Assembly (NCBI GenBank): GCA_045544955.1
Contig: JAZPZY010000029.1
Location: forward strand, 24,412-88,411
Length of the DNA: 64,000 bases
Source of the DNA: Eubacteriales bacterium
Lineage (GTDB): Bacteria > Bacillota > Clostridia > Oscillospirales > CAG-272
Direction: 5' to 3'
Of the stretch, positions 15,105 through 63,577 are shown in pieces. The notes below the pieces were generated by a model. That model was given only the letters and a program-made list of their open reading frames with translations, had not been told where the DNA came from and ran no database searches. The stretch's first letter is position 1, and each line of letters opens with the position of its first letter. The position numbers and the translations under genes are program-made.

Positions 15105-15338
15105 TGCAAAGCGTCATCCATTCTGGTATTCTATCTTTTGTTCTTTTTGCTCATTGCTATTTGTAATATAAAAAGGCAATGTGCTTTCTTATAACAATGG
15201 TATAATCATCCGGAGGAGGCCTTATTTAGTACGGTTCCCATAAGTCATCTGTTTTATAGCACAGGATTTTTTTCATAACCTCAAAATGAGCCACAAGGGG
15301 CTGGTGCATTTCAGAATGCAACAGCCCCATATTTTTGC
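15105..15338 (-). pseudogene. Ghost copy of the BSH-family locus (3' end plus upstream terminator/promoter region, CDS deleted)
   Basis: 15105-15148 matches 5312-5355 (stop codon plus last ~11 codons, EKEQKIEYQNG) with one mismatch. About 15176-15338 matches about 6352-6510 (leader, promoter-like region and GGCTGTTGCA hairpin) at roughly 85 percent by eye. The ~1-kb CDS between them is absent. Confidence 0.75.
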
Positions 15339-15380
15339 GTCGTTTGCGCAAACATTTGAAATTTTGCAAAAATTTGCAGA

Positions 15381-15436
15381 CATCCTCCTTGTTTTCGTGA
15401 ATCACATCGTAAAAACGCCGCACTGCGGCTTTTTTT
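15381..15436. repeat. Repeat sub-element E3 with bidirectional terminator (GCCGC-ACT-GCGGC flanked by A5 and T7)
   Basis: CATCCTCCTTGTTTTCGTGAATCACATCGTAAAAACGCCGCACTGCGGC resembles 53163-53212 and 63763-63802 (CATGCTCCTTATTTTCGTGAATCGCTTCGTGAAAATGCCGCACCGCGGC). It is positioned to terminate eda on the - strand. Confidence 0.7.
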
Positions 15437-22152: not shown

Positions 22153-25100
22153 ATGAAAGGTATGTCCAAAAGAATTTGTGCTCTTTTGCTGGCGTCCGTT
22201 CTGTCGGCGGGCGTTCTTCCGGCGTGCCGTGCCGAAGATACCCAAAAGGCCGACGAGACGCAGAAAGCCGAGGATACACAAAAAACTGACGACACGCAGA
22301 AAGCCGAGGACTCCCCAAAAACGGAGGACACTCAAAAGGCGGAAGAGCCGGAGGGACGTGTTCTCATCGACTGGAACTGCGACACGCTTGAAGAGGAATT
22401 TATATCTCTCGGTGCCAATACGTATCCCCATTATTATTTTGCCGATTCTTCAATGAAGGGCGTGGAACCGGGCACCGTGTACATGGCCGGCAACGCAAGA
22501 GCTTCCGGTTACGCCACCATGACGTTGCAAAGCGAAATGACTACCGCCGCCGTCACCCTGGAGATGGATATGAAGGTGGATTCTTTCGTAACCCCGGCGT
22601 CAAATCCGAACACGCGGGGATTCGTTATTGAGTTTACACTGCCGAACGGCAAGCTGCTGTATATCGCTTTGCGGGATATGGACGGCACGACGGATGAGGA
22701 CGGCAATAACGCCACGCTGCACGTATCCAGCCTGGACCGTGCCTCCGAATACGGATACAAGGAACGGATCGCCATTCCCACGGACGGAAAGTTTCACACC
22801 TGGACATTCCAGTACGACGGGGAAAGCTTGCTCCGCCTTTCCATTGACGGAGAAACCGTGCAGGATTTCCCGGAGGTAAACGTCTTCCATAGCAAGGACG
22901 CCGGGCGGCTGCAGCTAAAAAACGTTATGCTGAACCGGACGGAGGATTCCGCCTTGAACGTGATTACGTTTGACCGTATCAAGGTAACGGAGGGCACCAC
23001 CCTTCTGCGGCGGGAGATCGAAAGTGCCGCCGTGGCTCCGGGTGCCGTGGCAGAACGATTCACCGTTACTGCCCGGTTGAATCGCCTGGAAGAGAACGGC
23101 ACGCTTACGGTATCGGTCTTCCCCCGGGGTGAAGAGGAGCGGGCGGTGACAGCATCCCTGATGCCGGAAGCCCTTTCGACGGACGTAACCCTGGAGGATC
23201 TTCCCTTTACCGGGCTGTGCACCGTGCTTGTGCAATACGCCGACGCACAGCCTTTCTCGTTCAACTATTATCTGTATCATTCCTATGAGAAAATTGCCGC
23301 CGGTGACGAAGTGAAGGCGAAGCAGGCTGACGCGGCCTACGTATTCACAGATCTGGGGGCAGCAGAGGTGCCCGAAGATTCCACTTGGTACACGTTGGCG
23401 TGGGAAACGGCAACAGATTCCGGCTCCGCCCTTTGCACCCCTGCCGTGGGGAAGGCGCAGCCGCTTACCGTGCCCGTAACCCTTACCGGTAAATACGCCG
23501 TATTTGCCGGCTATGTGGAAGGCTCTCAGGCCATCGGCGTAAACGGAACGGAGGTGTCTCTTGATGCCCCCGGAAAGATTGGCACCAATATCTGCGAGAC
23601 GTTCGTCGCCGCCGTGGATGCGGACGGGGAGGAGATCACCCTTGAAAACGTCCCCCATGCTTTCGCACAGATTGCGTATCTGAAGTTCTTGTCCATTTCG
23701 GACGAGCTTTACGATATTGCCACCCGCAAGGACGATTCCCACACCTTTATCACCGACAACGACGGGTATTCCACACTGACGGATAAAAAGCACGGTGATT
23801 ACGAAACGCTGTTCAACAGTGACTTTGTGAAGCCGTATAACAGTATTGATCAGCGGCAGTTTATCTGGTGCACCTTCTCCACCTCCATTCTGAACTACGA
23901 CAGTGAAGTCTGGTGGGAGTACGTGGAAAGCCGGCTGCGTGATCTGAACATCCCCGAGGACAAGTGGCCTGAGGATTTCCTTGACCATGTGGACACGGAG
24001 GGAAACCATCCGGATTATGATGGGCTGATGCGTCAGGTGGACAAAAACGCCTACAGCAATATACGTGCCTTGAACAAGGAAGGCTATCCCCATAAGGTGC
24101 TTTCCGATATGGCGGCTGAGAAGATCGAGGACAGCCAGTTCTACGTATCGCTCCGTATGTCTCACTACGACGACGGTCAGTACGCTTTCCAGACCGGTGC
24201 CCTACATCATCTGCATCCCGAATGGATCAGAGAAGGCGGCGTACAGGCAAGCTACGCACACGAGGAGTACCGGAATTATCTCCATGATATTCTCATTGAG
24301 ATGGCCGAGCCGGAAAACGTCACCGGTGTCCTTATGGATTTTGGCAGATATTACTACATTTTCGGCGACGAGCTGACGGACGTGGAAAAACGTACAGAGA
24401 TCATGAACGAATTTGTGAAGAGCGTGCGCGACGATCTGCCAAAGGGTAAGAAACTCACCGTACGTGTGTTGGATCCCATCTATGAAAAGGCCACCGTATG
24501 GGGGCTGGACTATAAAACGTGGGTAAAGGAAGGATGGGTAGATCGGGTATACATCTCCTGCCAGTCTCACGAGACGTTCTTTGATTTTGACGAATACATT
24601 ACGTTCTTCGAAGAGTATCCGGAGACGGAATTCTATTTGGGCGTAAACGCAACCCTGTCCGGCACCGATACGACCAAGGCAGAAGAAGAAATCCTGCAGG
24701 CGGGAGGCACTGTTCAGCAGCGGAAGCGGGTGGACAAGATGGACATCATGCTTCGCATCAGCGACTTTTACGCCGCCGGTGCGGACGGCGTGTTCACCTT
24801 TAACTGGTCGGGTACCGCGTCCATGTTCCAGAACGTCCAGAACGCCACCCGTATGCTGAAGTGGTACTATTTCACCTATCCTACGACGCTTTCACAGCCC
24901 CCAAAGGCTATGTTCACCGACAAGGGCGGTCAGCGTGTGATCTTTGATTATGACTGCGCGTCTCTCTCCGTTCCGTTTGTCAGCCTGGGGGACAATGCGT
25001 ATCCGAACTACTACTTTGCCGATCACAGAATGGACGAGACCGTTCCCGAGGGCGTAATCTATCTTGGTGGCACGGCCGCGGAAAAAACCGGCTATGCCAC

Positions 25101-26082
25101 CCTCACCCTGCCTCTTACCGGTGCAGGAAAAGCGTATACGGTTACAATGGATCTAAAGATCGACTCCATCATGCAGCCCTCCGCGTCGCCTACCTGGCGG
25201 GGACTCATTTTCGAGATCTCCAATCCCGGGGCACCGCTTCTGTATTTCACGCTGAACGGCATGGAGACGGATGGGGACGGAAACAACGCCGTTCTGTATC
25301 TGTCAAAGAAAAAACGTGCCGGCACCGACGTGGAAAAGAAGATCGCTCTGCCCGATGATGACGAATTCCACACCTGGACCGTTGACTTTGACGGCAAGGG
25401 CGGCGTGGTGATCTCTATCGACGGAAAAGAACTCGTGAAGGCGGACGGCATTACCGTCCAGCCGAAGCAGGATAAACCGATCCTGCAGATCAAAAATATG
25501 ATGATGGATATCGCCGCCGGGCAGAACTCCCTCTTTATCGATTCCGTAACGGTCACCTCCCAGGTGGAGGCACACACCACGGCACCGCTTATCCAGGAAA
25601 CAAATGCCGAAAAGATCGCCGCCAAGGCCACCGTGGAACGCCGTGCCGAGGTGCTGGGATTCCCGGTAAAGGATTCTGATTTTGAAAAGGCATGCACCGT
25701 TGAGAATGCCGCAGATCCCGGAAAGTATACCTCCCACGGAAAGGAAGCCGAGGTCCAGTTTGCCTACGATAAAACGGCAAAGCAGCTGACGTTGTACGTA
25801 ACGTATAATCTGAATTCCTGGCTGAAGGATCTTTATCTGACGGACAGTGCGGGAAACAGCGTTGACTTCTATTCGGACAGAACGTACGGGGCGTCAAAGG
25901 CGGGGAATACCCTGTGGAGCCACGCCTATGCGGAAAAGAATCACGCAGACGCGGTAAAGACCGTCACGCTGGTTATCGATAATGTAACCGAACTGCCGGA
26001 GAAATACGTACTGTTTGCCAACAACTGCGGCACGAGCACCGGTTTCACGGCAAAGATCACCGTGGAATTTCCAAAAGAATAA
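22153..26082 (+). CDS. Giant secreted lipoprotein: acidic linker, lectin/LamG-like domain, TIM-barrel glycoside-hydrolase-like core, second LamG-like domain, C-terminal beta-sandwich (function unknown)
   Basis: Signal peptide with lipobox LPAC (Cys25). Internal duplication of a ~200-aa module (YPHYYFAD/YPNYYFAD, DGNNATLHVS/DGNNAVLYLS, FHTWTFQYDG/FHTWTVDFDG). Central region is weakly reminiscent of GHL10/DUF187-type TIM barrels. Paralog of 37770-41690. Confidence 0.8.
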   Translation: MKGMSKRICALLLASVLSAGVLPACRAEDTQKADETQKAEDTQKTDDTQKAEDSPKTEDTQKAEEPEGRVLIDWNCDTLEEEFISLGANTYPHYYFADSSMKGVEPGTVYMAGNARASGYATMTLQSEMTTAAVTLEMDMKVDSFVTPASNPNTRGFVIEFTLPNGKLLYIALRDMDGTTDEDGNNATLHVSSLDRASEYGYKERIAIPTDGKFHTWTFQYDGESLLRLSIDGETVQDFPEVNVFHSKDAGRLQLKNVMLNRTEDSALNVITFDRIKVTEGTTLLRREIESAAVAPGAVAERFTVTARLNRLEENGTLTVSVFPRGEEERAVTASLMPEALSTDVTLEDLPFTGLCTVLVQYADAQPFSFNYYLYHSYEKIAAGDEVKAKQADAAYVFTDLGAAEVPEDSTWYTLAWETATDSGSALCTPAVGKAQPLTVPVTLTGKYAVFAGYVEGSQAIGVNGTEVSLDAPGKIGTNICETFVAAVDADGEEITLENVPHAFAQIAYLKFLSISDELYDIATRKDDSHTFITDNDGYSTLTDKKHGDYETLFNSDFVKPYNSIDQRQFIWCTFSTSILNYDSEVWWEYVESRLRDLNIPEDKWPEDFLDHVDTEGNHPDYDGLMRQVDKNAYSNIRALNKEGYPHKVLSDMAAEKIEDSQFYVSLRMSHYDDGQYAFQTGALHHLHPEWIREGGVQASYAHEEYRNYLHDILIEMAEPENVTGVLMDFGRYYYIFGDELTDVEKRTEIMNEFVKSVRDDLPKGKKLTVRVLDPIYEKATVWGLDYKTWVKEGWVDRVYISCQSHETFFDFDEYITFFEEYPETEFYLGVNATLSGTDTTKAEEEILQAGGTVQQRKRVDKMDIMLRISDFYAAGADGVFTFNWSGTASMFQNVQNATRMLKWYYFTYPTTLSQPPKAMFTDKGGQRVIFDYDCASLSVPFVSLGDNAYPNYYFADHRMDETVPEGVIYLGGTAAEKTGYATLTLPLTGAGKAYTVTMDLKIDSIMQPSASPTWRGLIFEISNPGAPLLYFTLNGMETDGDGNNAVLYLSKKKRAGTDVEKKIALPDDDEFHTWTVDFDGKGGVVISIDGKELVKADGITVQPKQDKPILQIKNMMMDIAAGQNSLFIDSVTVTSQVEAHTTAPLIQETNAEKIAAKATVERRAEVLGFPVKDSDFEKACTVENAADPGKYTSHGKEAEVQFAYDKTAKQLTLYVTYNLNSWLKDLYLTDSAGNSVDFYSDRTYGASKAGNTLWSHAYAEKNHADAVKTVTLVIDNVTELPEKYVLFANNCGTSTGFTAKITVEFPKE
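22231..22356 (+). repeat. Seven tandem 18-bp (6-aa) repeats encoding an acidic linker (AEDTQK-like)
   Basis: In-frame units AEDTQK ADETQK AEDTQK TDDTQK AEDSPK TEDTQK AEEPEG directly after the lipobox cysteine. Confidence 0.9.
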
Positions 26083-27823: not shown

Positions 27824-29287
27824 ATGCGTATTCTCTCAATGTTTCTGGTGCTGATACTGCTCATGAGCTTTGCCGCCTGCACGAAGGCCCCGGACGCTCC
27901 CGCAAAGACCGATCCCGCCGAGACGACGGCGGCCACTGAACCTGCTGAGACGGAAGATCTTACGCTAAAGGACAATCTTCCCGAGGAGACCTTCAACAAC
28001 GAGGCAATCGCCATCTGGTCCGGACACAACCTGTACAATAGCTACTTTAATCCCGATCCGGATAAAGAGGGCGACGTCATGTGCGAAGCCACAAACAAGC
28101 GAAACGCCGCAGTAGAGGAGCGTTTTGATGTGGTTCTTGACTGGAAAGTCGGCGCGGAGGGCGACAAAAATAACGGTGCCCGTCTTACTGCCATGCAGTC
28201 CAGCATTCTTGCCGGTGACCGCATCGACCTTGTAACCCATATTTCCACCTATTTGACACCCCGGATGACTGCCGGATGTTTTGTAAATCTGGCAAACAAC
28301 GAAATCCTTGATCTCGAAAAGCCCTGGTATTTCGACTTTGTCACCGATAACCTCCGTGTCAACGATCGGTTGTACGGCGTTTCCAGCTGGTTCGATTTCA
28401 ACACGATCAACCGTTCCACCGTTCTGTTTTACAATATGGATATGGCAGAAGACTACAACGTGGGCGATCTGTACCAGATGGTGTACGACGGCACCTGGAC
28501 CTACGACAAGCTGATGGAGATCTGTGAATCTGTGGGGTCCGACGTGAACCAGGATGGCAAATACGACGATGAGGACCGGTACGGACTTGCCGGCAAGCAG
28601 GATCGCTGGTTCCAGCAGGCATATACCACCGGATACACCTTTGTTACCACTAATGAGGACGGTACGCTGACCGTTACGGAAATGGACGACCGTCTGATAG
28701 GTGCCTTTGATACCGTGCAGAAGATCTTCAGCGCCAACTGGTATCAGAGCTTCTATACCTACGGGGAAACACGCCGGGATGGCGCTATCATGAAGGAAGG
28801 CTTCAACAATGACCGCATTATGTTCATGATGCTTATGCTGCAGGAGACGGGCAACCAGGTTCTCCGTGACGGCGGTAAGTTCGGCCTGCTTCCCACGCCT
28901 AAATTCACGGACGATATGGAGTACGGCTCCGCAACGCTGCCGGCCATTTCCTGTGTTCCCGTTACCGCAGGAAACGTGCGGACCAATTCCATCGTGCTGG
29001 AAGCTCTGGCAGCCGAATCGTACAAGACCATGCGTCCTGCCTACTTCGACGTGGCACTGTCCTACAAGTACGTAAACGACGCCACCTCCCGGGATATGCT
29101 GGATATCGCCCTGTCTAACCTGTACTGTGATTTCGGTTATATGTTCATGGACTGCGGTTTTGGCCGTGAGATCCCCATGACGCTGACCCGTACAAACAGT
29201 CTGGCTTCCTGGATGGCAGCCCACACGGCAAAGACCAATGCCGGGCTCGCCGCACTGGTGGAGCAGATCATGGCTCTGCCCGAATAA
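27824..29287 (+). CDS. Lipoprotein, ABC-type extracellular solute-binding-protein-like (orphan, copy 1)
   Basis: Lipobox SFAAC. Pro/Ala/Glu/Thr linker. 487 aa. Resembles the large sugar-SBP class of Firmicutes (recalled). Same length as, and highly similar to, 45491-46954. No permease or ATPase genes are adjacent. Confidence 0.7.
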   Translation: MRILSMFLVLILLMSFAACTKAPDAPAKTDPAETTAATEPAETEDLTLKDNLPEETFNNEAIAIWSGHNLYNSYFNPDPDKEGDVMCEATNKRNAAVEERFDVVLDWKVGAEGDKNNGARLTAMQSSILAGDRIDLVTHISTYLTPRMTAGCFVNLANNEILDLEKPWYFDFVTDNLRVNDRLYGVSSWFDFNTINRSTVLFYNMDMAEDYNVGDLYQMVYDGTWTYDKLMEICESVGSDVNQDGKYDDEDRYGLAGKQDRWFQQAYTTGYTFVTTNEDGTLTVTEMDDRLIGAFDTVQKIFSANWYQSFYTYGETRRDGAIMKEGFNNDRIMFMMLMLQETGNQVLRDGGKFGLLPTPKFTDDMEYGSATLPAISCVPVTAGNVRTNSIVLEALAAESYKTMRPAYFDVALSYKYVNDATSRDMLDIALSNLYCDFGYMFMDCGFGREIPMTLTRTNSLASWMAAHTAKTNAGLAALVEQIMALPE

Positions 29288-29343: not shown

Positions 29344-29384
29344 AAAAAAACGCACCCGGAATCATTCGATTTCGGGTGCGTTTT
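29344..29384. terminator. Bidirectional terminator between SBP copy 1 and the C-N hydrolase operon (repeat sub-element E1)
   Basis: A7, then CGCACCCGGAAT-CATTCG-ATTTCGGGTGCG, then TTTT. The same CACCCGAAATC...GATTTCGGGTG hairpin recurs at 36309-36338 and 53054-53079. Confidence 0.75.
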
Positions 29385-29390
29385 GGCTTT

Positions 29391-29435
29391 TGGCGAGGGG
29401 ATTTGAACCTCCATGATCTCCTGATTATGAGGGGG
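29391..29435 (-). repeat. tRNA-Met(CAU)-like 3' half (pseudo-tRNA fragment), copy R1
   Basis: Minus strand reads CCCCCTCATAATCAGGAGATCATGGAGGTTCAAATCCCCTCGCCA: CTCATAA anticodon-loop-like, GGTTCAAATCC T-loop-like, acceptor-like 3' end. No complementary 5' half exists upstream. Confidence 0.65.
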
Positions 29436-29511
29436 ACCTGGTGGAAATAGATGAAGTTGGTGATTGTAAACGTGCCTGTTTGGCGGCTTTTTTAATCCGA
29501 GGGGATCCTTC

Positions 29512-30384
29512 TCACATGATCTTATCAAAGTTTTCGAAGATCTCCTCCCACTCTTTCGGGGCTGTGCCCTCAGAGGCAAGGGAGACGTAGGAATTGTAAT
29601 TGCGGCACTTGTGCATATACTCCCGCAGATCCTCACTGCATGTGGGGGTATCCGAGGTGTTGGTGCGGACCACTTTACCCATTTCGATCTCCACCACACG
29701 GAAGGCGTTGACAGTATCCAGTTTTGTGACCACGTTTCCCTCGGGATCGACCATGCCCGTGTAGGCGATATCCCAGAAGGGGGAAAGCTGACAGGATGCC
29801 ATATACATAGAGTGATCAATGGCACGGGTACGCAGCTTCATTTCCCACTGGGGCTTCAGCGTATCGCCGTACAGGGGATAGAGAACCAGCTGTGCTCCCT
29901 TATTGCCGAGAGAGGCCGCCGCCTCCGGGAAATAGTTGTCAAAGCAGATGATGATGCCCACCCGTCCGAAATCCAACTGGAACACAGGGTATTCCGTGCC
30001 GGGAACCAGCCCCTTTTTCTGTTCCGAGGCGGTGATATTGCACTTGCAGTAGCGTCCGACGAAATTTCCGTCTCTATCGAGGATATAGGAAGAATTGCGG
30101 ATCTTGCCGTTCTCTCCCACGTAATAATCCCACGGGACCACGTAGGCGTGGTATTTCCGTGCCAGCTCCGCACAGCGAAGATGCCATGCGTCGGCGATTT
30201 CTTTCAGTCTGTCGGGTTGCCGAAGAACGTCTCTGTTTCGTACGTACTGGAATGCCTCGGGGAAGAATACCAGATCCGCGCCCTCCTTCAGGCAGTTTTC
30301 GCCAAGTGTCATCAAAACGTCCTGCCGAGCCCCGATGTCAAAGACCATTTCGTTGTCAACCTGTATAAGTCCTATCTTTGCCAT
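29512..30384 (-). CDS. Carbon-nitrogen hydrolase (nitrilase/amidase superfamily)
   Basis: 290 aa. Catalytic-triad contexts FFPEAF (Glu) and VGIIICFDNYFPE (Cys). AAGGAG RBS. 10 bp downstream of the DUF2264-like gene. Confidence 0.8.
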   Translation of the reverse strand: MAKIGLIQVDNEMVFDIGARQDVLMTLGENCLKEGADLVFFPEAFQYVRNRDVLRQPDRLKEIADAWHLRCAELARKYHAYVVPWDYYVGENGKIRNSSYILDRDGNFVGRYCKCNITASEQKKGLVPGTEYPVFQLDFGRVGIIICFDNYFPEAAASLGNKGAQLVLYPLYGDTLKPQWEMKLRTRAIDHSMYMASCQLSPFWDIAYTGMVDPEGNVVTKLDTVNAFRVVEIEMGKVVRTNTSDTPTCSEDLREYMHKCRNYNSYVSLASEGTAPKEWEEIFENFDKIM

Positions 30385-30394
30385 AACGCTCTCC

Positions 30395-32278
30395 TTATTC
30401 CAGTGTTACTGTTTTGGTGATGCCGTCGAAGGTGACGGTGACGGTGTTTTCTTCCATGCGGATCTCCGGCTTTTCTTCGGGCTTTTCCCCGGTGGAGAAA
30501 AATACGGTGGTAACGAACCGGTATTCACCGGCCTCCAGCATCTCCCCGGTTGTCCACGTGGGGTAATAGGCAAGGGGCGAGAGATTGTGCATACCGGGAT
30601 GGATCGTGCGCGTGCCGAGCACCGTAGGAACGTCCGACACTACGCTGATCTCGCTGAGTGTATTCCCGTAGGTGATTCTGGCACCGTCAAACTGTACGCT
30701 GTCGTCCGTTACGCCTACGCAGAATCCGCCCTCGCTGACCCGGTACTTCTGTCCGAGGACTACCTTGTGAATGCGGACGTGATATCCCTTTGACAGGGGC
30801 AGCACCCAGGTGGTTATTTTGCTCTCTGCATCGTTAGCAAAGGGATAGTGGCAGGATACCTGCATATCGGGTGTAGTGCTGATCGTGTAGATCCTTGTAC
30901 GCAAAGACTCCATGGAGGCATCCTTCGTGGAGAGGGAGATCATATTATCAAGAGCCGCCTTATCCCGGGAGGAAATGGAGAATCCGGCGCGGGAGTTGTA
31001 GCAGAATTTTCCGTAATATCCCGCCATATCGTTGAAGGCACTGTTGGTCGTCTGGAAATAGTGGATGGCGTTGTTGAACAGCGTCACACCACCGAAATCC
31101 TTTTCCGCTTTTATGAGAATATCCAGCCCGTCCGTCTCACATTCCACGGCGTAGTCGCCCCGGTCGATCAGAAGCGGTGCCGCCTTGCTCTGCCAAAGGG
31201 GATGATCCTCACCTGCCAGCAGGCACATAAATCCCTCTGTATAGCAGGTGGTGGCACCGTCGGAGGAGTAGTTCTCGCCGAAGCGGGGGGAGGCGTACAG
31301 ATAGCCGCAGGGGAAGCATCCGTCCTCGGTGGGGATGCTCTTTGTGAAATAGTAGTCGATGTTTTTAAGGATGATGCTCTTGGCAAGTCCCATATCGATC
31401 TTACAGCCGGCTGTCGCCGCCAGACCGAATGCGGATACCATGGCAAAGCGGTAGCTGAGCGAGCGTCCGTAGGCGGGCACGCCGCCGTCCGTGTCGAAAT
31501 AGTGAGCGAAAAACGTAAGAAACTCCTCGCTTCGCTTCAGGTATTTCTCCCGTTTTTCGGCGTATCCCGGTGCCGTCTTATCGGCTACCAGCGTCCACAG
31601 CAGGGTGTAGGCATGGTGTGCCCACGCTTCGTAATAGTCAAAGCGGCCGAAGTCCTTGCCGTCGCAGTACCAGCCGTGTCCTACGTACAGTTCCTCCAGG
31701 GCGGCGTATCCTTCCTTCATATACGGCTCGGCCGTGGGATCGCAGTATCCCAGTTCCTTCAGGATCTCTATGCTGAAAATGGGATACCACCAGTGATTGT
31801 TGGGCCAGGAATTTTTCAGTGCGATCATGGCCTGGTTGTGGATCCATCGGGCGATCTGCTCCTTTGTGTCTGCATCCAGCGGCTCCCACAGGGATTCTTT
31901 GGCGAAATGCACCGCCACCAGATAGGCGGCGATCTCGGTGATGCACTGATTGGCAAAGCCGATCTCTGCCGTTTGGGGGATATGCCGGTCGAACCGCCGG
32001 GGCGAATCGGCGGCAGTGCCCTCACAGATGACCTTCGTGATAAACCGGCATACGTGTACCGTCTCACCGCCCACGGGAATCACAAAATCCGGATCGGAAA
32101 GAAAAGGCGCGATGCCCCACAGTGGGCGGAACAGCTCCTCCAGCCGGGTGCATTCGTAGCCTACGTGATCCACCAGAAGCGGAACGTACGCCGATTCGTA
32201 CCGGGCGGCGGTACGCGTCATCAGTTTTATGTAGTAGTTTTTGGAAAGCTCGTACAGCTCTTTTCTTGAAGTAAGCAT
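30395..32278 (-). CDS. DUF2264-like protein (putative alpha/alpha-barrel glycan-active enzyme)
   Basis: 627 aa, cytoplasmic. N-terminal region (LFRPLWGIAPF..., WPNNHWWYP) recalls DUF2264 family members. The assignment is from memory, not a search. Confidence 0.5.
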   Translation of the reverse strand: MLTSRKELYELSKNYYIKLMTRTAARYESAYVPLLVDHVGYECTRLEELFRPLWGIAPFLSDPDFVIPVGGETVHVCRFITKVICEGTAADSPRRFDRHIPQTAEIGFANQCITEIAAYLVAVHFAKESLWEPLDADTKEQIARWIHNQAMIALKNSWPNNHWWYPIFSIEILKELGYCDPTAEPYMKEGYAALEELYVGHGWYCDGKDFGRFDYYEAWAHHAYTLLWTLVADKTAPGYAEKREKYLKRSEEFLTFFAHYFDTDGGVPAYGRSLSYRFAMVSAFGLAATAGCKIDMGLAKSIILKNIDYYFTKSIPTEDGCFPCGYLYASPRFGENYSSDGATTCYTEGFMCLLAGEDHPLWQSKAAPLLIDRGDYAVECETDGLDILIKAEKDFGGVTLFNNAIHYFQTTNSAFNDMAGYYGKFCYNSRAGFSISSRDKAALDNMISLSTKDASMESLRTRIYTISTTPDMQVSCHYPFANDAESKITTWVLPLSKGYHVRIHKVVLGQKYRVSEGGFCVGVTDDSVQFDGARITYGNTLSEISVVSDVPTVLGTRTIHPGMHNLSPLAYYPTWTTGEMLEAGEYRFVTTVFFSTGEKPEEKPEIRMEENTVTVTFDGITKTVTLE

Positions 32279-32300
32279 AAAATCCTCCTTTTATCGCTTC

Positions 32301-33308
32301 TTACCGCTTCGGCGGATAGCAGACGATGACCTCGCCGCACGTTACGGATACGGTGCCGCAGCCGTACGGCACGAACCATTTTTCTCCCCGTTTAACGGAG
32401 AGGCGTTGTTCCCCGATAAGAAGCTCGCCGTCCTCCGTTACCACCAGGCTTACAAAGCTGTCCGGTACAACAGAACCGCCGGTTTGCAGTTTTGCGAGTG
32501 CAAAGCAGGGCGTGTCTTTATAACTAACGAGGGAAGTGCAGAAGCCGTTCTGCTGTTTTGGCTCAATGAAATACGCTTTCCGTGCCGTGTCCTCGCTTAC
32601 ACCCTCATAAATATAGCAGTCCAGCATGGCGTCCTCGCCCACACCGTAGTGGATCTGCATGGGCGTCAGTGCCTCCCCGGCCAGGGTGATCTTTTCCATA
32701 CGCATGGTGTAGTCGGTGGGCTCCTGAATCTCCAAAAGGAAGCAGCCGGCACCGATGGCGTGGGGCGTTCCCGCCCGGACGAGCACGGTGTCTCCCGGCT
32801 TTACGGGAAAGCGGTGCAGGGCAGACAGCATACCCTCTACGTCCTGCGTTTCAAAGAGTGCCTTCCATTTCTCCCTTGTGATGCCCTCTTTGAAGCCAAT
32901 GTAAATGGATGCACCGTCCTCTACGGCAAGAATATGCCAGCACTCCGTCTTGCCGTAATTCGTGCCGAAATGCTTTCTTGAAAAATCGGGCGTGGGATGT
33001 ACCTGTATGCCGAGACGCTCCGCCGCGTTCAGATATTTCACCAAAACACCGCTGTCCTCTCTGCCGGGGCCCAGATCGTCAGGCGTTATCACCTCGGTGA
33101 TGGGCAGAGCTTCCCCATCCACCATTACCCGGGAGATACCCTCTCCCGGTCGGTAGACCCGGTTTTTCGCCTCCACGAAGGAGGAGATCCAGTCCTCCGG
33201 CAAAAAGGAGTCGGCAGGATTCGGATTGCCCACGAACTGATCCAGCAGGCGTCCGCCTCGATAGGTGCGGTATACCCGGTTTTCCGTTTGCAAAAGCGGT
33301 TTTTTCAT
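32301..33308 (-). CDS. manA: Class I mannose-6-phosphate isomerase
   Basis: 335 aa. Cupin metal-site contexts LGIQVHPT, KTECWHIL and GTPHAIG typical of type I PMI. Confidence 0.75.
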   Translation of the reverse strand: MKKPLLQTENRVYRTYRGGRLLDQFVGNPNPADSFLPEDWISSFVEAKNRVYRPGEGISRVMVDGEALPITEVITPDDLGPGREDSGVLVKYLNAAERLGIQVHPTPDFSRKHFGTNYGKTECWHILAVEDGASIYIGFKEGITREKWKALFETQDVEGMLSALHRFPVKPGDTVLVRAGTPHAIGAGCFLLEIQEPTDYTMRMEKITLAGEALTPMQIHYGVGEDAMLDCYIYEGVSEDTARKAYFIEPKQQNGFCTSLVSYKDTPCFALAKLQTGGSVVPDSFVSLVVTEDGELLIGEQRLSVKRGEKWFVPYGCGTVSVTCGEVIVCYPPKR

Positions 33309-33310
33309 GT

Positions 33311-35278
33311 TTATTTCTCTCTTTTCAGAATAATTACGTCATTGGCAGGCACGGTGACTGTCTCGGCAAAGCCGTATCCTTCCACCTTTGAGCAAACGTC
33401 GGTTTCGGTGTAGTTGAATACGAAGGCAAAAACGGCGTCCTCGTTTTCGGAAACACGTACGTGAAGCGGAGCGTCGACGGTAATATCCCGCAGACAGAAC
33501 CGATCCGCCAGCGAAGCGGCAAACGGCGTGCCCGTGCCGGCACCCTTGTTTTCTCCGTACCATACGTAGGTTGCCGCCGTGATGACGACGCCGTCACCCA
33601 GACGCTTTTCGATCACGGCAGGATAGCCGTCGGCAAAGGTGCCCACAGCCTCCCCGTCCGTCACGTGAAGAAGATCCCGTCCGTAATAGCCGGCGTATGC
33701 TTTTTCGCCGCAGACGAAATCCAGCCCCTCGTAATCGCAGTCCACGTATTCGCATCCCATGGCCGCATTGAAATCTCCGCCTGGCATGGCAGAGTGCATC
33801 ATGGAGAACTCGTCCGTGATACCGATCTTGCCGTCGCAGACGATCACGCCGCCCTCTTTTACGAATTCGGTAAGGGCACGGGCGGTGGCGGCACTTATCA
33901 CCACGGTGTTGGAGAGGATCAGCATTTTATACTCCTTGATGCGGTCGATCTTTACGATATCGCATCGCACGCCGGCACGCCACATGGCCTCGTACGCACC
34001 GCACAAAGAGGAGAGATAGATGTTCTGATCTACGTCCTCGTAGCATTTCGTGTAGCATATCTGGAAATCGTGGCTGGTTTCGTCAAACAGGATGCCCACC
34101 TTCGCCCGGACCGGCGTCAGCGTGCCCGTCTCCCGGAGTACTTCTGCAAATTCCTTGGCAAACACAAGCCGGGGCGTGCTCCGGTTTTTGTAGTCCACAA
34201 GTCCCCGACCCGCCGTTTGCAGTCCCTTGTCAAAGGGACGCCATTTCCAGTATATCAGACCCTTGGCACCCGCCGCCAGTGCCTCCGTGCACCACTGCTT
34301 CAATTCGTAGGGACGGACGCAGGTGGTGGGATTGAACAGTGCCTTTACGTGGGTCTGCATCTCAGAGACGAAAAATCCGTCTCCCGCCGAGGCGGCGTAG
34401 AACGCGTCAAAGGTGTTCCAACGGGTGTGAGGCGCGGAGCAGTACGTCTCCTGCTTCGGGTAAAAGGAAACGCCGATCTCGTCTGTGGTATCCTTCAGTA
34501 CATAATCGTCCTGGGGACGCTCATACACCCAACTGCCGTTTGTGATCATGGAGCCGATGTTGTCGGCGATCAGCGGATGTGCCGTATCCACTTCCCGGAT
34601 CGCGTCGCACCAGTTTTTCAGGTAGATCCCCAAAGCCTTCTTGCGGAAGGAGGCAAGATCCGCCGCCGGCATAACGCTCATCCACATCCAGGGGGCGTAG
34701 GATACCTGGGAAAACTCGGTATAGGTACGCTCCCATACGTCGTTCAGTCTTTCAATCGTGCCGTATTTCTGACGAAGAAAGGTGCGGAACGCCTCCATGG
34801 TGTACGCATCGTAAGAGAAGAACATGGTCTCGTTGAATACGTCGTACCCCGCAAGGGAGGCATATCCCCGATAGGCCAGCGCCGCTTTTTTGTAGTGGGC
34901 GCAGATCAGCTCGTTTACCTCGGGATGAAAGTAGTTCAGATACCCAAAGCTTGCGGGCGTGAGCTTTTTGTGGCCGTTCTCATCCACGGCGTAGTATTCG
35001 TCCTTCATCTGAAAATCGGGAATGTATTCCATCATAGGAAGCTGGCCTGCCAGCTCCATGATCACGCCGATCCCTACCTTTTCAGCGATCTCCAGTACGG
35101 TTTTTCCGGTGTTGAAAGGGTATCCCTCCTTCTTTTCTTCCCACCAGAAGGCGGCAGGCCATATCACCACTGTATCCATCCCTGCCTCTTTCATCTGGCA
35201 AAAATTCTGCTCGATCACCTCGGGCGTGTCCTCCCGGGTCAGCTTCAGAACCGAGCCGTATGCAAATTTCCGTTTCAT
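33311..35278 (-). CDS. GH42-like beta-galactosidase
   Basis: Start moved to MKRKFAYG (GGGGAGA RBS at 7 nt). N-terminal TIM barrel followed by a trimerisation-like middle domain, an architecture typical of GH42. No signal peptide. Confidence 0.65.
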   Translation of the reverse strand: MKRKFAYGSVLKLTREDTPEVIEQNFCQMKEAGMDTVVIWPAAFWWEEKKEGYPFNTGKTVLEIAEKVGIGVIMELAGQLPMMEYIPDFQMKDEYYAVDENGHKKLTPASFGYLNYFHPEVNELICAHYKKAALAYRGYASLAGYDVFNETMFFSYDAYTMEAFRTFLRQKYGTIERLNDVWERTYTEFSQVSYAPWMWMSVMPAADLASFRKKALGIYLKNWCDAIREVDTAHPLIADNIGSMITNGSWVYERPQDDYVLKDTTDEIGVSFYPKQETYCSAPHTRWNTFDAFYAASAGDGFFVSEMQTHVKALFNPTTCVRPYELKQWCTEALAAGAKGLIYWKWRPFDKGLQTAGRGLVDYKNRSTPRLVFAKEFAEVLRETGTLTPVRAKVGILFDETSHDFQICYTKCYEDVDQNIYLSSLCGAYEAMWRAGVRCDIVKIDRIKEYKMLILSNTVVISAATARALTEFVKEGGVIVCDGKIGITDEFSMMHSAMPGGDFNAAMGCEYVDCDYEGLDFVCGEKAYAGYYGRDLLHVTDGEAVGTFADGYPAVIEKRLGDGVVITAATYVWYGENKGAGTGTPFAASLADRFCLRDITVDAPLHVRVSENEDAVFAFVFNYTETDVCSKVEGYGFAETVTVPANDVIILKREK

Positions 35279-35409
35279 TCCGATTTCTCCCCTCGCATTT
35301 TTCTTCATTATAACACTTTTTTGTGTGCATTTCTTGCTGTTCGTTGCAAAATATATTGCATTTTTTGCGATTTTCTGTTACCATATAAAAAACGGGCAGG
35401 AGGAGAACG

Positions 35410-36237
35410 ATGAGCGGTACGATCTATAAATTTGAGAGGGAAATGCTGAAGGGGGAAGACATCCACATCCGGAAAAAGAGCGATAACGCTTATTACAAAA
35501 AGCATTGGCACAACTATTTTGAGATTATCTATTACAAGAACTGTGCAGGCTATTGCTCTTTGAACGGGATGGAATACCCGCTGCGGGGGAACTGCCTCTT
35601 TTTTCTCACGCCCAGTGACTTTCACCAAATCGTAACAGAGGAGGTACCGGATTCTTACGCACTGATCATTTCCTTCAGCGAGCAGATCGCAGATAAAAAA
35701 ATACTGGAAAAGCTCACCGGAGAGGCCATCGTGCTGTACGATCTTCCGCCGCTTCTCGCCGGGCAGATCGAAGAGCTGTACACGGTATTCAGCGGAAAAT
35801 CCGCCTTTCGGGAGAGATACCTCCATCACCTGCTCAACTGCATCCTGATCTGTATTCTGGAACAGGGACAGCGTGTGTTGCCGGCGGCAAAGGATATCCA
35901 TCCTATCGTCAGAGAAAGCATCGCGTATATGCTGGCTAATCCATCCGCACCTATCACGCTTCATACCTTTGCCGAAAAATTCTGCATTACGGAAGCTTAT
36001 TTCTCCCATCTGTTTCATGAGAACGCCGGCGTTTCCTTCAAGCAGTATCTGACCTCCTTGCGGATGGAGTGTGCCAAACGAATGCTGTCTGAAGGGGAGT
36101 TTTCCGTGATCGACGTGGGATTTGAGTGCGGCTTTGTCAGCCCGTCCCAGTTTTCCCGCAGCTTCAAAAAGCACACAGGCATGACGCCTTCGGAATACCG
36201 TGCGAAGAAGAACTCGGCGGCTGGAATGACGGGGTAA
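35410..36237 (+). CDS. AraC-family transcriptional regulator, divergent from the GH42 operon
   Basis: AGGAGGAG RBS. C-terminal HTH (ITEAYFSHLFHENAGVSFKQYLTSLRM...SQFSRSFKKHTGMTPSEYR). Confidence 0.85.
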   Translation: MSGTIYKFEREMLKGEDIHIRKKSDNAYYKKHWHNYFEIIYYKNCAGYCSLNGMEYPLRGNCLFFLTPSDFHQIVTEEVPDSYALIISFSEQIADKKILEKLTGEAIVLYDLPPLLAGQIEELYTVFSGKSAFRERYLHHLLNCILICILEQGQRVLPAAKDIHPIVRESIAYMLANPSAPITLHTFAEKFCITEAYFSHLFHENAGVSFKQYLTSLRMECAKRMLSEGEFSVIDVGFECGFVSPSQFSRSFKKHTGMTPSEYRAKKNSAAGMTG

Positions 36238-36270
36238 GGCGTATCGGTCTATAAGAAATTAACGGTGGAT

Positions 36271-36479
36271 TTTTTTGTGCACATTTTCATGATAGCACAA
36301 AGAAAACGCACCCGAAATCAACTGATTTCGGGTGTTTTCTCCCTTGTCACGCTCGCTGTTTCGCCTACCGGCGGAGGTCACGCTCCAAGCCCATGACCTC
36401 CTCCGTCGGTCATGAAAGGGAAGTCCATGCTCACATCGAGAAACGAGAAAAGCCACCTAATCGGGTGGCTTTTCGTTTC
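36271..36479. repeat. Composite intergenic repeat R2 (E1 terminator, CATGACC/GGTCATG hairpin, second terminator)
   Basis: Three parts:
- 36309-36338: CACCCGAAATCA-AC-TGATTTCGGGTG + TTTT (terminator of the AraC gene, + strand).
- 36392-36414: CATGACC-N9-GGTCATG.
- 36440-36479: GAAACGAGAAAAGCCACC-TAATC-GGGTGGCTTTTCGTTTC (terminator of GH43, - strand).
The core CGCTCCAAGCCCATGACCTCCTCCGTCGGTCATG recurs at 37557-37590 and 63578-63604. Confidence 0.8.
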
Positions 36480-36516
36480 TGTGTTGTGCGTCCTTAATAG
36501 ATGCCTGACGAAATAA

Positions 36517-37392
36517 TCAGGTCATTATCACAGGTTGTAGCTTTCCGTCACAAATAGACAGCTCGTCAATGCACAGTTTGCGATGGTGAGGGTTGGAATC
36601 ACCTATAGAGCGGCGGTGATATGCAACATACCATTTACCGTGATAGCAAAATGCGCTGTTGTGTCCAGGACCGTTGGCGATTTCACCTGCGCTTAATACA
36701 TCTGAATAATAGACAAAATTTGTACAGGGGGTGTCCGAGACGGCAGCCTTAACGCAATACGTACCGTTTGTCCATGATCCTGACGAATACATAAGATGAT
36801 ATTTACCATCAATTTTCATCACGTAAGGAGCTTCGACATACTTAACAGGCGTAAGCTCTCTTGCAATTCCGCCAAAGTTTGGCTGAGGCATCGGTTCAAA
36901 GCCGTCCATCATGTCATTCATTTTGCAAACCATTAAATGTGTCCAACCACCATAATACAAATATACACTTCCGTCATCATCTTTGAACAGATGCGCGTCG
37001 ATTGGCTGTGCATTGTTGTAAATGGAATTCAGTAGAGGTCTGCCATCCTCAAATACATTTTTAAAAGGACCTATCGGTTTATCACTCACACCAATATAAA
37101 GTCCGCCGATCTCCGCTTCACTGTGAATATCGTTGGCGGCAAATATGATATAATATTTACCGTTTTTATCAATAACAGTAGGTGCCCACACAGCCTTTGT
37201 AACACCTTTGTAAGTGGACATATCGAGAATATCGTAATGTATTTTGAAATTTTTCAAATCATCCGTTGTTACAAGATCAAGATTTTGTTGGTCCTCATAT
37301 TTCAGCGAACGCGTAACATACATATAAACGGTGTCGCCATACACCCGCGATTCAGGATCGGCATACCAATTTTCAACAATAGGATTTTCCAC
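36517..37392 (-). CDS. GH43-family glycoside hydrolase (beta-xylosidase/alpha-L-arabinofuranosidase type)
   Basis: Start re-placed at GTG 37392 (GGAGG 7 nt upstream), giving VENPIVENWYADPE. Catalytic contexts YADPE, DAHLFKDDDG and VEAPYV. AT-richer than neighbouring genes. Confidence 0.85.
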   Translation of the reverse strand: MENPIVENWYADPESRVYGDTVYMYVTRSLKYEDQQNLDLVTTDDLKNFKIHYDILDMSTYKGVTKAVWAPTVIDKNGKYYIIFAANDIHSEAEIGGLYIGVSDKPIGPFKNVFEDGRPLLNSIYNNAQPIDAHLFKDDDGSVYLYYGGWTHLMVCKMNDMMDGFEPMPQPNFGGIARELTPVKYVEAPYVMKIDGKYHLMYSSGSWTNGTYCVKAAVSDTPCTNFVYYSDVLSAGEIANGPGHNSAFCYHGKWYVAYHRRSIGDSNPHHRKLCIDELSICDGKLQPVIMT

Positions 37393-37458
37393 AATAATAC
37401 CTCCAAAATCTATTTTTACCAACGCTTTTCTTATAGAAATCATCAAATATACATCCTC

Positions 37459-37487
37459 ATTGTACCACGTTTAAGATTTTTTGTCAA
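37459..37487 (-). promoter_or_regulatory. Near-consensus sigma-70-type promoter for GH43
   Basis: Minus strand: TTGACA (37487-37482), 17-nt spacer, TACAAT (37464-37459). This implies a ~60-nt leader to the GTG at 37392. Confidence 0.65.
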
Positions 37488-37524
37488 TGAGTTTACTCAA
37501 TCGTTTCATCTTGGGTTTCAAGTT

Positions 37525-37713
37525 ATTCACCCGCCTAACCGCCACCGGCGGCGGTCGCGCTCCAAGCCCACTCCCTCCTCCGTCGGTCATGGAAGGGAAC
37601 AGTTCTCATCTCACAGGCGAAACGAAAGAAAACAGCCACCCTACGATGACTGCTTTCTTTCGTTTGGTTGCGAGGATGGGATTTGAACCTCATGACCTCC
37701 GGGTTATGAGGGG
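37525..37713 (-). repeat. Composite repeat R3: tRNA-Met(CAU)-like 3' half, terminator hairpin, GGTCATG-containing core
   Basis: Three parts:
- 37665-37713 on the minus strand: CCCCTCATAACCCGGAGGTCATGAGGTTCAAATCCCATCCTCGCAACCA.
- 37621-37665: hairpin AACGAAAGAAAACAG...CTGCTTTCTTTCGTT, positioned to terminate giant paralog 2.
- 37557-37600: core shared with R2 and R5. Confidence 0.8.
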
Positions 37714-37769
37714 ACACGCTTTATAGGCTGAGAATCAACCGTTGATTTGCGATATGTTTTACGCCATAC

Positions 37770-40700
37770 TTACGGAAAATCGATGGTGATCTTTGCAGTA
37801 TAGGTATTGCTCGTACCGCAGTTTGAGGCAAATACCACGTATTTATCCGGCAGTTCGGTGACGTTGTTTACCGTGAAGGTCATGGTTTTGATGGCGGCGG
37901 CATGACCGTTGTCCGCATACTGATGGCTCCACAGGGTATAGTCGTTGCCCGTTTTGCCCCACTGTCTGTCCGTCTTGATCTCTACGATCTTACCCTCGCC
38001 GTCGACCACCATAAAGTCGAACAGCCAGGAGTTCAGATTGAAGTTCACGTCCACGCGGAGTTTTTTCGCCTCTGCGTCAAAAGCGTATTCCACCTCGGCG
38101 GTCTTGCCGAAGGTTTTATAGTTGCCGGCCTTGTCCGAATTTGCCACGGTCAGTGCTTTTTCCCAATCTCCGTCGCTTACGGGCAGGGCCAGAACCTCCG
38201 CACGCACGTCTACGGTAACGGCGGCTTTTTCTTCCGCCACGGCCGGCGCTTCCTCCTTCGGCTTCTCGGCGAAGGGATCGATCACAGTGGGACCTACCTC
38301 GGAGATCATGGAAACGTTATCCACGTACACGGCGTTATGGCCGGAGGCGATATCCATCATGACGTTGCGGATCTCAAGCTGACTGAGGCCTTCCTTGGTG
38401 GGCTCAGCCACGATGTCCTCTGCCTTCAGGATCTCCTTACCGTCGATCTTGAAGACTGCGGCACCCTTACCGTCAAAGTCGACGGTCCAGGTATGGAACT
38501 TGTCATCTGCGGGAAGCTGGATCTTCTGCACGATATCGTCGCCGGCGCGGCTCTTCTGGGACAAGTGAATGACGGCGTTATTGCCGGCGGCATCCTTTTC
38601 CATGCCGTTCAGCACGAAATACAGAAGCGGAGCGCCCGGTGTGACGATCTCAAAGACCAGACCTCGCCAGGTAGGCAGCTTTGCGGGTATCATGAGCGAT
38701 TCGATCTTCAAATCCATCGAAAGCGTATAGGAGGTACCCACGCCGTTTGTGGGAATCAAAAGGCTGGCGTACCGCTGGGCATTTTTGGCCTCGCCGCCGA
38801 TATAGAGCTGTCCCTCAGGCACAGCCGCATCCATGGCGTGATCGGCAATGTAATATTCCGGGTATTTGTTTTCGCCCCGCTTTACGATGGGGCTGGCGAG
38901 AGAATCGCAGTCGTACTGGAAGATCACGCGCTTTCCGCCCGGATCCGTAACCTTGGCGGGCTGAGGCTGCACAAGGGACGTGGGATAGATAAAGTTATAC
39001 CACTTCATCATGCGGGTGGCGTTCTGCACGTTTTTGAACATGGCATCGGTGCCCGACCAGTTGAAGGTGAACACGCCGTCCGCACCGGCCGCATAGAAGT
39101 CGTAGATGCGGAGCATGATGTCCATTGCGTCCACGGACTCACCGCCCCGGACGCTTCCGCCGGCGGCAAGGAGATCCTCCTCTGCCTTGGTCAGATCGTG
39201 GCCGGAGAGCGTAGCGTTTACGCCCAGGTAGAATTCCACCTCGGGATGCTCGTCAAAGTAGGCGATATACTCATCGAAATCGAAGAAAGTCTCATGTCCC
39301 TGGGCGGAGATGTATACACGGTCAACCCAGCCGTTTTCCACCCAATCCTTATAGTTAAGGCCCCAGCCCAGCGCCAGCTCCTGCACGGGATCAAGAACAC
39401 GCACGGTGAGCTTCTTGCCCTTCGGCAGATCGTCATGCACGCTCTTCACGAACTCGTTCATGATTTTGGTACGTTCTGCCACGTCCTTCACCTCGTCGCC
39501 GAAGATCCAGTAGTAGCGGCCGAAATCCATGAGGATACCGGTCACGTTTTCCGGCTGTGCCATTTCCACCAGAATATCGTGCAGATACGCACGGTATCCT
39601 TCGTGATAATAGCTGAGCTGTCCGCCGCCCTCTCTCACCCATTCGGGATGGAGGTGATAGAGAGAGCCGGTCATGAAGGCGTAGTCTGTGCCCATGAAGT
39701 GGGACATACGGAGAGATACGTAGAACTGGCCGTCCTCGATCTGCTCCGCCATCATATCGGAGAGAACCTTATGGGGATAGCCGATCTCGTTCAGTGCACG
39801 CATATTGGCGTAGGCATTCTTATCGAGATTACGCATGATCTCGTCGAACTCCAGATGCTCACCCTCGGTATTCACGTGGTCAAGGAAATCCTTGGGCCAC
39901 TTTCCCTCGGGGATATTCAGCTCCTTCAGGCGAGCTTCCACGTGCTTCCACCACGCTTCACTGTTATAGTTCAGTATGGAGGTGGAGAAGGTGCACCAGA
40001 TAAACTGACGCTGGTCGATGTAGGAGTACGGCTGGCTGAAATCCTCGCTGTACAGCGACTCGTAGTTGCCGTTTCTGGTATTGCAGAGGGTGGAATAGCC
40101 GTCGTTGTCGGTGATGAAGGTATGGCTGTCGTCCTCTTTTACGGCGATCTCATACAGCTCGTCGGTGAGGGATACGAATTTCAGATACGCGATCTGTGCT
40201 GTCTTAAGCGGTATGTTTTCAAGGGTGATGCCCGCGCCGTCCGCATCCAGCACGGTGATAAACGCTTCCACGATATTGGTGCTTGCCTTGGCGGTGCCCA
40301 GGTCTGCCTCAGTACCGTTCAGGGTAATGCCCCGGGAGCCTTCCATATAGCCGGCGTACACGGCGTATTTACCGGTAAGCGTCACGGGAACGGTAAGTTC
40401 CTCCACCGTCTCCGAGGGCTGAATGCAAAGAGCAGCACCCTTACTGCTTCCGGTCTCATACTGTACGGTGTACCACTCCGAGCCATCGGCGATCTTCACC
40501 TTTTCAAGATCGTTGAACAGATACGCAACCCCTGCGTCCTCCGCCTTGATCTCCTCATCGGCGGAGACGTTCTTTACGTCCTTATACAGCCAGTAATCGA
40601 AAGTGTACGGCAGTGCATCGGCGTAATTCACTTCCACCGTGCAGAGGCCGGTGAAAGGAATATCCGTAAGCGTAACAGGGACGGCGACGTCCTCCGGTGT

Positions 40701-41690: not shown

Positions 41691-41752
41691 TGTGGATAAT
41701 CCTTTCTGTTATTTAATAGAAATATCGTCTTCAAGTATTATGTTTGTTAATG

Positions 41753-42841: not shown

Positions 42842-42860
42842 CGTCATTCCTCCGTAAAGG

Positions 42861-45380: not shown

Positions 45381-45432
45381 AGGTTATGTATCTCCTGGTA
45401 AAGGGGAGTTTGTGTGAATGATTACGGGAAGC

Positions 45433-45460
45433 AAGGGGGAGTCTTTGAAAAGTCCCCCTT
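45433..45460 (-). other. Intercistronic hairpin after SBP copy 2 (no U-tract)
   Basis: AAGGGGGA ... TCCCCCTT with an inner CTTT/AAAG extension. It lies in the 110-bp gap between the SBP and the GH106-like gene. It could be an mRNA stabiliser or partial terminator. Confidence 0.45.
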
Positions 45461-45490
45461 GGGTATTTAGTTCGACGTCAGCAAATCCGG

Positions 45491-63555: not shown

Positions 63556-63577
63556 TCGCACTCTCGTTATCCACCAC

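Follow-up and report, generated by a model that had tools for sequence, protein, structure and literature searches.

Displaced 3' fragments of an initiator tRNA gene in a carbohydrate-utilisation region of an uncultured Eubacteriales bacterium: probable att scars of tyrosine-integrase elements

The stretch of DNA analysed here, a 64-kb window from the genome of an uncultured gut-type Clostridia (Eubacteriales) bacterium, was identified by Pfam and NCBIfam scans of its open reading frames as a carbohydrate-utilisation region. The encoded glycosidases comprise rhamnosidases and members of families GH20, GH42, GH43, GH106 and GH127, and they are accompanied by seven AraC-type regulators, solute-binding proteins, two paralogous proteins of 1300 aa and a Fic protein. 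The same Pfam and NCBIfam scans detected no recombinase domain in the window ORFs. When three integrases and 46 element proteins were additionally used as tblastn queries against the window (best E = 0.03), neither these searches nor the domain scans revealed an integrase, an excisionase, a Mor or primase gene or any other element gene or remnant, intact or decayed. Profiles of GC content and skew across the window did not distinguish modules by composition. ARAGORN called no complete tRNA gene, and a full-length cognate tRNA-fMet gene in the orientation of the fragments described below is thus absent within the 64 kb. Since the Rfam scan of the window also returned no match at the gathering score, none of the fragment sites is a gene.

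Two pairs of inverted paralogous genes lie in the window. The first, detected by self-BLAST, encodes the proteins of about 1300 aa (22153-26082 on the plus strand and 37770-41690 on the minus strand, 68% nucleotide identity), to which the Pfam scan assigned no family, and the second encodes the 487-aa putative binding proteins SBP1 and SBP2 (27824-29287 on the plus strand and 45491-46954 on the minus strand, 75% nucleotide identity). Both pairs suggest that an entire operon was duplicated in inverted orientation long ago. Six to seven tandem 18-nt units resembling GCCGAAGATACCCAAAAG occur towards the 5' end of the first 1309-aa gene (22231-22356) and encode a short, acidic repeated peptide.

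3' fragments of the initiator tRNA-fMet gene

The motif GGGATTTGAA occurs exactly five times in the window. One occurrence, at 45314, falls inside a glycosidase coding region and was rejected as a chance match, and the other four mark the half-tRNA-like sites that a preliminary description of this DNA had reported on the minus strand, all of which are present. Read 5' to 3' on that strand, site 1 (29435-29391) consists of CCCC followed by CTCATAATCAGGAGATCATGGAGGTTCAAATCCCCTCGCCA and runs into the hairpin of terminator A (29384-29347). It is a diverged tRNA-fMet 3' fragment, with CTCATAA at 29425-29431 after the CCCC, a T-loop and a truncated acceptor CGCCA. This site is decayed: it shares about 80% identity with the halves found in the comparison loci L002, L003 and L004, its exact core relative to the real tRNA is just 14 nt long, and it gave no tRNA match even in a permissive Rfam scan because it is too decayed. 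Site 2 (37713-37665) reads CCC-CTCATAACCCGGAGGTCATGAGGTTCAAATCCCATCCTCGCAACCA and continues into terminator B and the D7/D4 repeat, to 37540. Its tRNA-fMet 3' fragment extends after the CCC from C32 to A76 (37710-37665), bulged A included, and scored 16.7 bits as a 5'-truncated Rfam tRNA match against a gathering score of 29, the best such match in its stretch. Upstream of site 2, a match of 9 nt (ACATATCGC) resembles the 5' flank and start of the tRNA but was set aside as too short to interpret.

The remaining sites are interrupted by or joined to inserted DNA. Site 3 (53251-53094, minus strand) reads CCC-CTCATAACCCGGAGGTCATGGGGG, insert X (53228-53109), TTCAAATCCCATCC and onwards, terminator A and the D16 repeat; its left piece (53229-53251) is composed of CCC and CTCATAACCCGGAGGTCATG, and its right piece (53094-53108) of the T-loop and the 3' strand of the T-stem, followed by a degenerate acceptor. 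Site 4 (63802-63677, minus strand) reads X' (63802-63700), TTCAAATCCCATCCCCGCAACCA, terminator B and D7/D4, the tRNA piece itself (63677-63699) covering the T-loop to CCA. An additional site 5 (63464-63549, minus strand) joins a degenerate R-like piece (63464-63484) to an X-like piece and is conserved in the relative L038. All fragments in the window are 3' fragments in one shared orientation. Neither blastn nor alignment revealed a 5' half of tRNA-fMet in the window, which bears out the earlier remark that no site has one, nor was any piece of tRNA-Leu found. The fragments begin at two positions, namely C32 (CTCATAA) at sites 1 to 3 and T54 (TTCAAATCC) at sites 3 to 5, the same two sublocations at which crossover mainly occurs in catalogued tDNA islands (PMC4383910).

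The gene from which the fragments derive was recognised in a close relative, L035, which was found through its GH43 protein, 98% identical to that of the window. The order of features in L035 is tRNA-Leu(TAA), a displaced 5' half of tRNA-fMet, a 175-nt remnant, a complete tRNA-fMet gene (3812-3889) and GH43, the latter preceded by the same promoter as in the window. This tRNA-fMet gene was called by ARAGORN and scored 56.5 bits with the Rfam tRNA model. Its blastn matches in the window were confined to the reported sites, with 45/46 identical positions at site 2 (37710-37665, E = 3e-19), 23/23 at 63699-63677, 20/20 at 53248-53229 and 15/15 at 53108-53094, the match to site 1 being limited to 14 nt (29411-29398). 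We conclude that the fragments genuinely derive from the 3' part of this lineage's initiator tRNA-fMet gene. The comparison, made with the L035 gene rather than the host's own, yields similarity clearly beyond chance and excludes a chance origin of the repeats. The preliminary label of tRNA-Met(CAU)-like halves was therefore right in so far as these are 3' pieces of a tRNA-Met, but their source is the initiator tRNA-fMet and not Ile2 or the elongator tRNA-Met. In metagenomes, CTCATAACCCGGAGGTCATGGGTTCAAATCCCAT is carried by 23 genuine tRNA-fMet genes, and the contigs bearing GGGCTCATAACCCGGAGGTCATGGGTTCAAATCCCAT (n = 23) all contain a genuine tRNA-Met(CAT) with the initiator-type acceptor stem CGCGGGG/CCCCGCA.

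The T-stems of the sites had also been described as imperfect. A bulge is indeed present at site 2 (ATGaGG/CCCAT), but the inserted A occurs likewise in the real tRNA-fMet genes of relatives, where the 5' strand of the T-stem has the extra A both in L035 (3812-3889, CATGaGG/CCCAT) and in L036 (1439-1516, CGTGaGG/CCCAC) and the outer pair changes in a compensating way. Because these genes share the inserted A, the imperfect T-stem of site 2 does not reflect decay. The bulged-T-stem initiator tRNA genes of the lineage were accepted as tRNAs by both ARAGORN and Rfam. Two U-U mismatches occur in the T-stem of L007 and L010, which is instead GTTGG/CCTTC. No paper on bulged T-stems in initiator tRNAs emerged from a full-text literature search. 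As a side possibility, the initiator tRNA of this lineage might work with a bulged T-stem. The displaced 5' half in L035, which together with the 175-nt remnant occupies 3604-3811 directly before the full gene, comprises 32 nt of the tRNA and 4 upstream nt and is a scar of the less common 5'-fragment type that shares the anticodon-loop position.

Terminators, arm repeats and insert X

The preliminary description had the tRNA-like 3' ends running on the minus strand into a terminator hairpin, and hairpins or inverted repeats were found directly 3' of the fragments. Terminator-like hairpins were confirmed at 53053-53080, 63642-63667, 36309-36334 and 36447-36474, and self-BLAST displayed inverted repeats at 29347-29384 and 37620-37665. 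Terminator A at site 1 (29347-29384) is a bidirectional hairpin directly 3' of the fragment and is shared with the convergent SBP gene. At site 3 it lies at 53053-53080 within a minus-strand terminator A-D16 block (53017-53085), whose layout and motifs, an ACACCC...GGGTGT hairpin followed by GTTATgAAAAtG, are those seen 3' of the tRNA in the L007 attL, in L010 and in L035. Terminator B at site 2 (37620-37664) is followed by D7/D4, the whole minus-strand block spanning 37540-37664, with the GH43 promoter beyond it (37487-37459). The corresponding block of site 4 (63557-63676, minus strand) is 93% identical to 37565-37687. Additionally, two arm-only copies are present on the minus strand: D16 with terminator A, without a tRNA piece (36271-36345), and D4'/D7' with a terminator-B-like hairpin directly 3' of GH43 (36362-36480).

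Terminator B resembles the terminators found directly after tRNA-fMet in L036 and after the fragment in L003. Judging from these resemblances and from those of terminator A, the 3' ends appear to be native-type at sites 2 and 4 and element-supplied at sites 1 and 3, so that native-type junctions alternate with element-arm-type junctions along the window. Such alternation is unlike a single tandem array, and later recombination, duplication or fusion of arrays must therefore be assumed.

Insert X (53109-53228, minus strand) separates the T-stem 5' strand from the T-loop and is composed of a terminator hairpin, GCCGC-GGT-GCGGC, and about 90 nt. Its counterpart X' (63700-63802, minus strand) is 97% identical to the R-proximal part of the X of site 3 and differs at its distal end. 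In sites 3 and 4 this insert of about 120 nt lies exactly at the border between the T-stem 5' strand and the T-loop, and it resembles the 175-nt remnant beside tRNA-fMet in L035. A third copy of the left part of X, with terminator GCCGCAGTGCGGC and TTTTTACGATGTGATTCACGAAAACAAGGAGG, lies at 15376-15430, 3' of a KDPG aldolase gene and not beside any tRNA piece. The D4 repeat is present in three copies (36367-36422, 37544-37599 and 63557-63612) and holds an 8-bp inverted repeat, CCATGACC-N9-GGTCATGG, one arm of which, GGAGGTCATGG, is identical to the variable-loop/T-stem segment of tRNA-fMet. This inverted repeat may be a candidate recombinase binding site or a secondary att core. Neither the D4 inverted repeat nor the X-R junction had a match in the viral contigs scanned.

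Integrase-linked sites and synteny breaks in relatives

The exact left-half pattern was found in three genomes among 185,579 species representatives, in one copy each, all of them related Eubacteriales MAGs, and once in 2.9 million viral contigs, adjoining an integrase. In the latter, L004, a 100-kb phage contig, the fragment lies about 140 nt from the tyrosine integrase. In L002 and L006, an HTH_17 gene (xis, excisionase-type) and a tyrosine integrase gene are located about 165 nt 5' of the fragment and terminate an island that also carries genes for Mor, DUF1643 and DUF927 proteins, and in L001 the left piece is followed by a truncated integrase. The complete arrangement is displayed by L007, whose integrase is 58% identical to that of L002: a full tRNA-fMet gene (918-993) with its terminator is followed by an element of about 10 kb that ends in xis-int and then by an exact CTCATAA-to-CCA repeat (11253-11297), which ends in a terminator different from that of the full gene. 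In L036 the tRNA is directly joined to the flank found after the repeat in L007. L036 is therefore an empty site and L007 an occupied one, and both states are thus on record for this element family. For site 2 of the window, the counterpart is L035, which keeps an intact tRNA-fMet joined to the same GH43 flank.

An integrase gene is present within the tRNA-fragment interval in L006, L007, L010 and L004, and none was found between the fragments of the window. Both L010 and L036 contain extra short fragments that start in the T-stem/T-loop region and have no integrase of their own, which indicates that tandem scars are common at the tRNA-fMet locus. L036 also holds an inverted tRNA-fMet-like piece (3394-3445) with an 11-nt insertion in the T-stem region, which adjoins two direct short fragments (3317-3339 and 3617-3635). 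In the alignment 5' of CTCATAA (the P arm), the window shares just the short CC(C) junction with the integrase-linked loci. A search for viral relatives of the L002 integrase returned one distant match, cut at the contig end, with no att visible.

Comparison with related genomes, proposed earlier as a check, revealed that homology breaks inside the repeat regions. The homology to L035 (37710-36469, 91.6%) has its start precisely at the CTCATAA of site 2 and stops within the hairpin that follows GH43. That to L001 (53396-53229, 97%) gives way to divergence where the left piece of site 3 ends, and the homology to an AraC fragment of L001 runs to 36240, the edge of the arm-only block. In L038, which belongs to the same MAG as L001, homology (58113-63549, 94%) stops just before the D4-D7-terminator B-R-X block. 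All five breakpoints (37710, 36469, 53229, 36240 and 63549) lie in repeat regions, two of them (37710 and 53229) within a few bases of fragment edges, in a sample that is biased because the relatives were found via genes or patterns adjoining the repeats. L038, which represents the MAG closest to the window, has an IS200/IS605-type Y1 transposase gene (5578-6054) in place of the D4-terminator B-fragment-X block of the window.

The GH43 gene (36517-37446 in the window) was found in a different neighbourhood in each genome examined (L035, L036 and L042-L044; protein identity 98-80%) and appears to move as a single-gene module. The notion that GH43 is a constant neighbour of tRNA-fMet was rejected, as it holds in L035, loosely in L036 and not in L042-L044.

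Origin of the fragments and comparison with known systems

Integrase-made tRNA gene fragments are pervasive in prokaryotic genomes. We consider it very probable that the repeats of the window are att scars and short element arms originating from repeated insertions of tyrosine-integrase elements into tRNA-fMet, which were later eroded and reshuffled. In this scenario, elements such as the small Mor/primase/xis-int islands and phages would insert into tRNA-fMet or into its earlier scars, each insertion leaving displaced tRNA-fMet 3' fragments and short pieces of element arm. A crossover at the anticodon loop would produce the 46-nt fragment starting at CTCATAA (sites 1 to 3), and a crossover at the T-loop the fragment of about 20 nt that begins with TTCAAATCC and adjoins insert X (sites 3 to 5). 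Each fragment would be followed by a terminator either of the native tRNA-fMet kind or of a kind that the element brings along to complete the tRNA gene. All element genes, those for the integrases included, would since have been lost from the region, and the scars and arms would now lie at the 3' ends of carbohydrate-utilisation operons, where gene order varies between related genomes. We infer that integration gave rise to the fragments of the window itself and that the modules between them came in, or were swapped, by way of these sites, whether through an integrase working in trans or through homologous recombination among the att and arm repeats.

The preliminary description had left a choice between serial site-specific integrations and a tRNA-derived SINE/MITE-like repeat family. 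Its att-scar reading, that of elements targeting the tRNA 3' end, is retained, but simple serial integration followed by loss of the recombinases is not borne out, as no element remnant is present, the junctions alternate and the full tRNA that should head such an array is not in the window. The repeat family, a non-autonomous one spreading by transposition or retroposition, is highly improbable. It would account for several copies within 35 kb, for their composite structure and for the common flanking hairpins, but neither a repeat search nor self-BLAST revealed terminal inverted repeats where the copies end, and the copy boundaries, instead of being defined, vary by site and follow the structure of the tRNA. 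The exact left half is moreover limited to one copy per genome in the three related MAGs among the 185,579 species representatives and to the single viral copy beside an integrase, and in L035 the same sequence is a plain, real tRNA gene. We likewise regard as very unlikely that the fragments serve as functional tRNA-like 3'-UTRs, in which a T-arm/acceptor mimic before the terminator would stabilise or process minus-strand operon mRNAs. In favour of this, every copy follows minus-strand genes in the sense orientation and immediately precedes a terminator, and site 2 retains its bulged T-arm. However, orientation and terminator come from the tRNA gene itself, and the fragments have no acceptor 5' strand and are therefore no substrate for RNase P or the CCA enzyme. 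Furthermore, two of the four copies are split by the 120-nt insert and one is badly decayed, and relatives such as L038 have the orthologous genes without a fragment there.

A stronger though still unlikely alternative is that no integrase acted here and that homologous recombination, duplication and inversion among several scarred tRNA-fMet loci spread 3' ends, terminators and arms. Such exchanges are suggested by the duplicated R-terminator B-D7/D4 block (93% over 123 nt), by the arm-only copies at 36271-36480, by the large inverted paralogous modules (the two giant genes at 68% and SBP1/SBP2 at 75% nucleotide identity), by the alternating terminator types and by the absence of element genes from the window. 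Against it, three fragments begin exactly at C32, with the CCC junction that is also found beside xis-int in L002, and X lies exactly at the T-stem/T-loop border, a precision that speaks for site-specific crossover and not for homologous exchange. The first fragments would, in any case, still need integrase events.

Fragments of tRNA genes mark tyrosine-integrase islands and prophages, which is the Islander principle (PMC4383910), and have been described as attR sites (PMC9897764). As in Islander-type tDNA islands, where a displaced tRNA 3' fragment marks the island end in the orientation of the tRNA, the fragments of the window start at the anticodon loop or in the T-stem/T-loop region, and the element would supply a replacement 3' end and terminator. 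Fragments that are all of the 3' type and in a single orientation are the configuration expected for tDNA islands (PMC4383910), and the full arrangement of tRNA, island with xis-int and fragment is seen in the relative L007. Unlike such islands, the window contains neither a full tRNA gene nor an integrase between fragments, so that its intervals would fail Islander's integrase filter; a strict island definition thus fails on one tested feature, the integrase. At least four to five fragments are found within 35 kb, whereas arrays of three or more were rare in the Islander survey (4 in 2168 genomes; PMC4383910). The window appears to be the standard tDNA-fragment signature in the form of a decayed, integrase-less, multi-scar region, a kind of feature that is already known, and the odd half-tRNA repeats would be accounted for without anything new.

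Accretion and CIME systems, such as the ICESt1-type elements of Streptococcus thermophilus (PMC5704250) and the ssrA islands of Dehalococcoides (PMC3146451), offer a second parallel. Their segments, like those of the window, are delimited by directly repeated 3' ends of a tRNA or tmRNA gene, and many lack integration genes, carry metabolic cargo and lie in a strain-variable region; 15 of the Dehalococcoides ssrA islands are without integration modules (PMC3146451). Two intervals of the window (29436-37664 and 37714-53093) show the CIME arrangement of direct att repeats without integration or transfer genes, being bounded by fragments in the same orientation and containing no recombinase. The window differs from CIMEs in having no remnants of a parental element, and the likeness is one of sequence arrangement. 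It also differs from a clean CIME/ssrA array in its alternating junction types. In Dehalococcoides a serine recombinase acts at ssrA, whereas the enzymes linked to the fragments in relatives are tyrosine integrases at tRNA-fMet. The short type of fragment is paralleled by mycobacteriophage Ms6, which crosses over in the T-loop of tRNA-Ala (PMC1762012): as at the X-TTCAAATCC junctions of sites 3 to 5 and in the short fragments of L010 and L036, a T-loop crossover leaves a short 3' repeat. The tRNA, host and integrase differ from those of Ms6, and the T-loop-type insert of the window is reduced to about 120 nt.

The glycan operons between the fragments could also be integrase-less, CIME-like cassettes that are excised, exchanged and re-inserted in trans by the tRNA-fMet-specific integrases of resident islands or phages, a proposal that we regard as doubtful. 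If it were true, the att scars would form a portable docking system shuffling glycan-degradation modules among uncultured gut Clostridia. With the reading preferred here, that of att scars left by repeated insertions, the phenomenon is a well known one, and the fragments serve as markers of a hot spot for integration, with borders prone to recombination, in a CAZyme-rich part of the genome of an uncultured Eubacteriales bacterium. Annotators should not label them as tRNA pseudogenes of unknown origin, and the coordinates given above provide exact positions at which to ask if strains exchange glycan-utilisation modules as whole units.

In another part of the window, a choloylglycine (bile-salt) hydrolase gene is located at 5321-6307 on the minus strand. 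Its two flanks (5312-5355 and 6348-6498) recur adjacent to each other, without the gene, at 15105-15326, with 98% and 81% identity, respectively. The gene-less flank pair at 15.1 kb may represent either a deleted second copy of the hydrolase or an empty site for a one-gene module.
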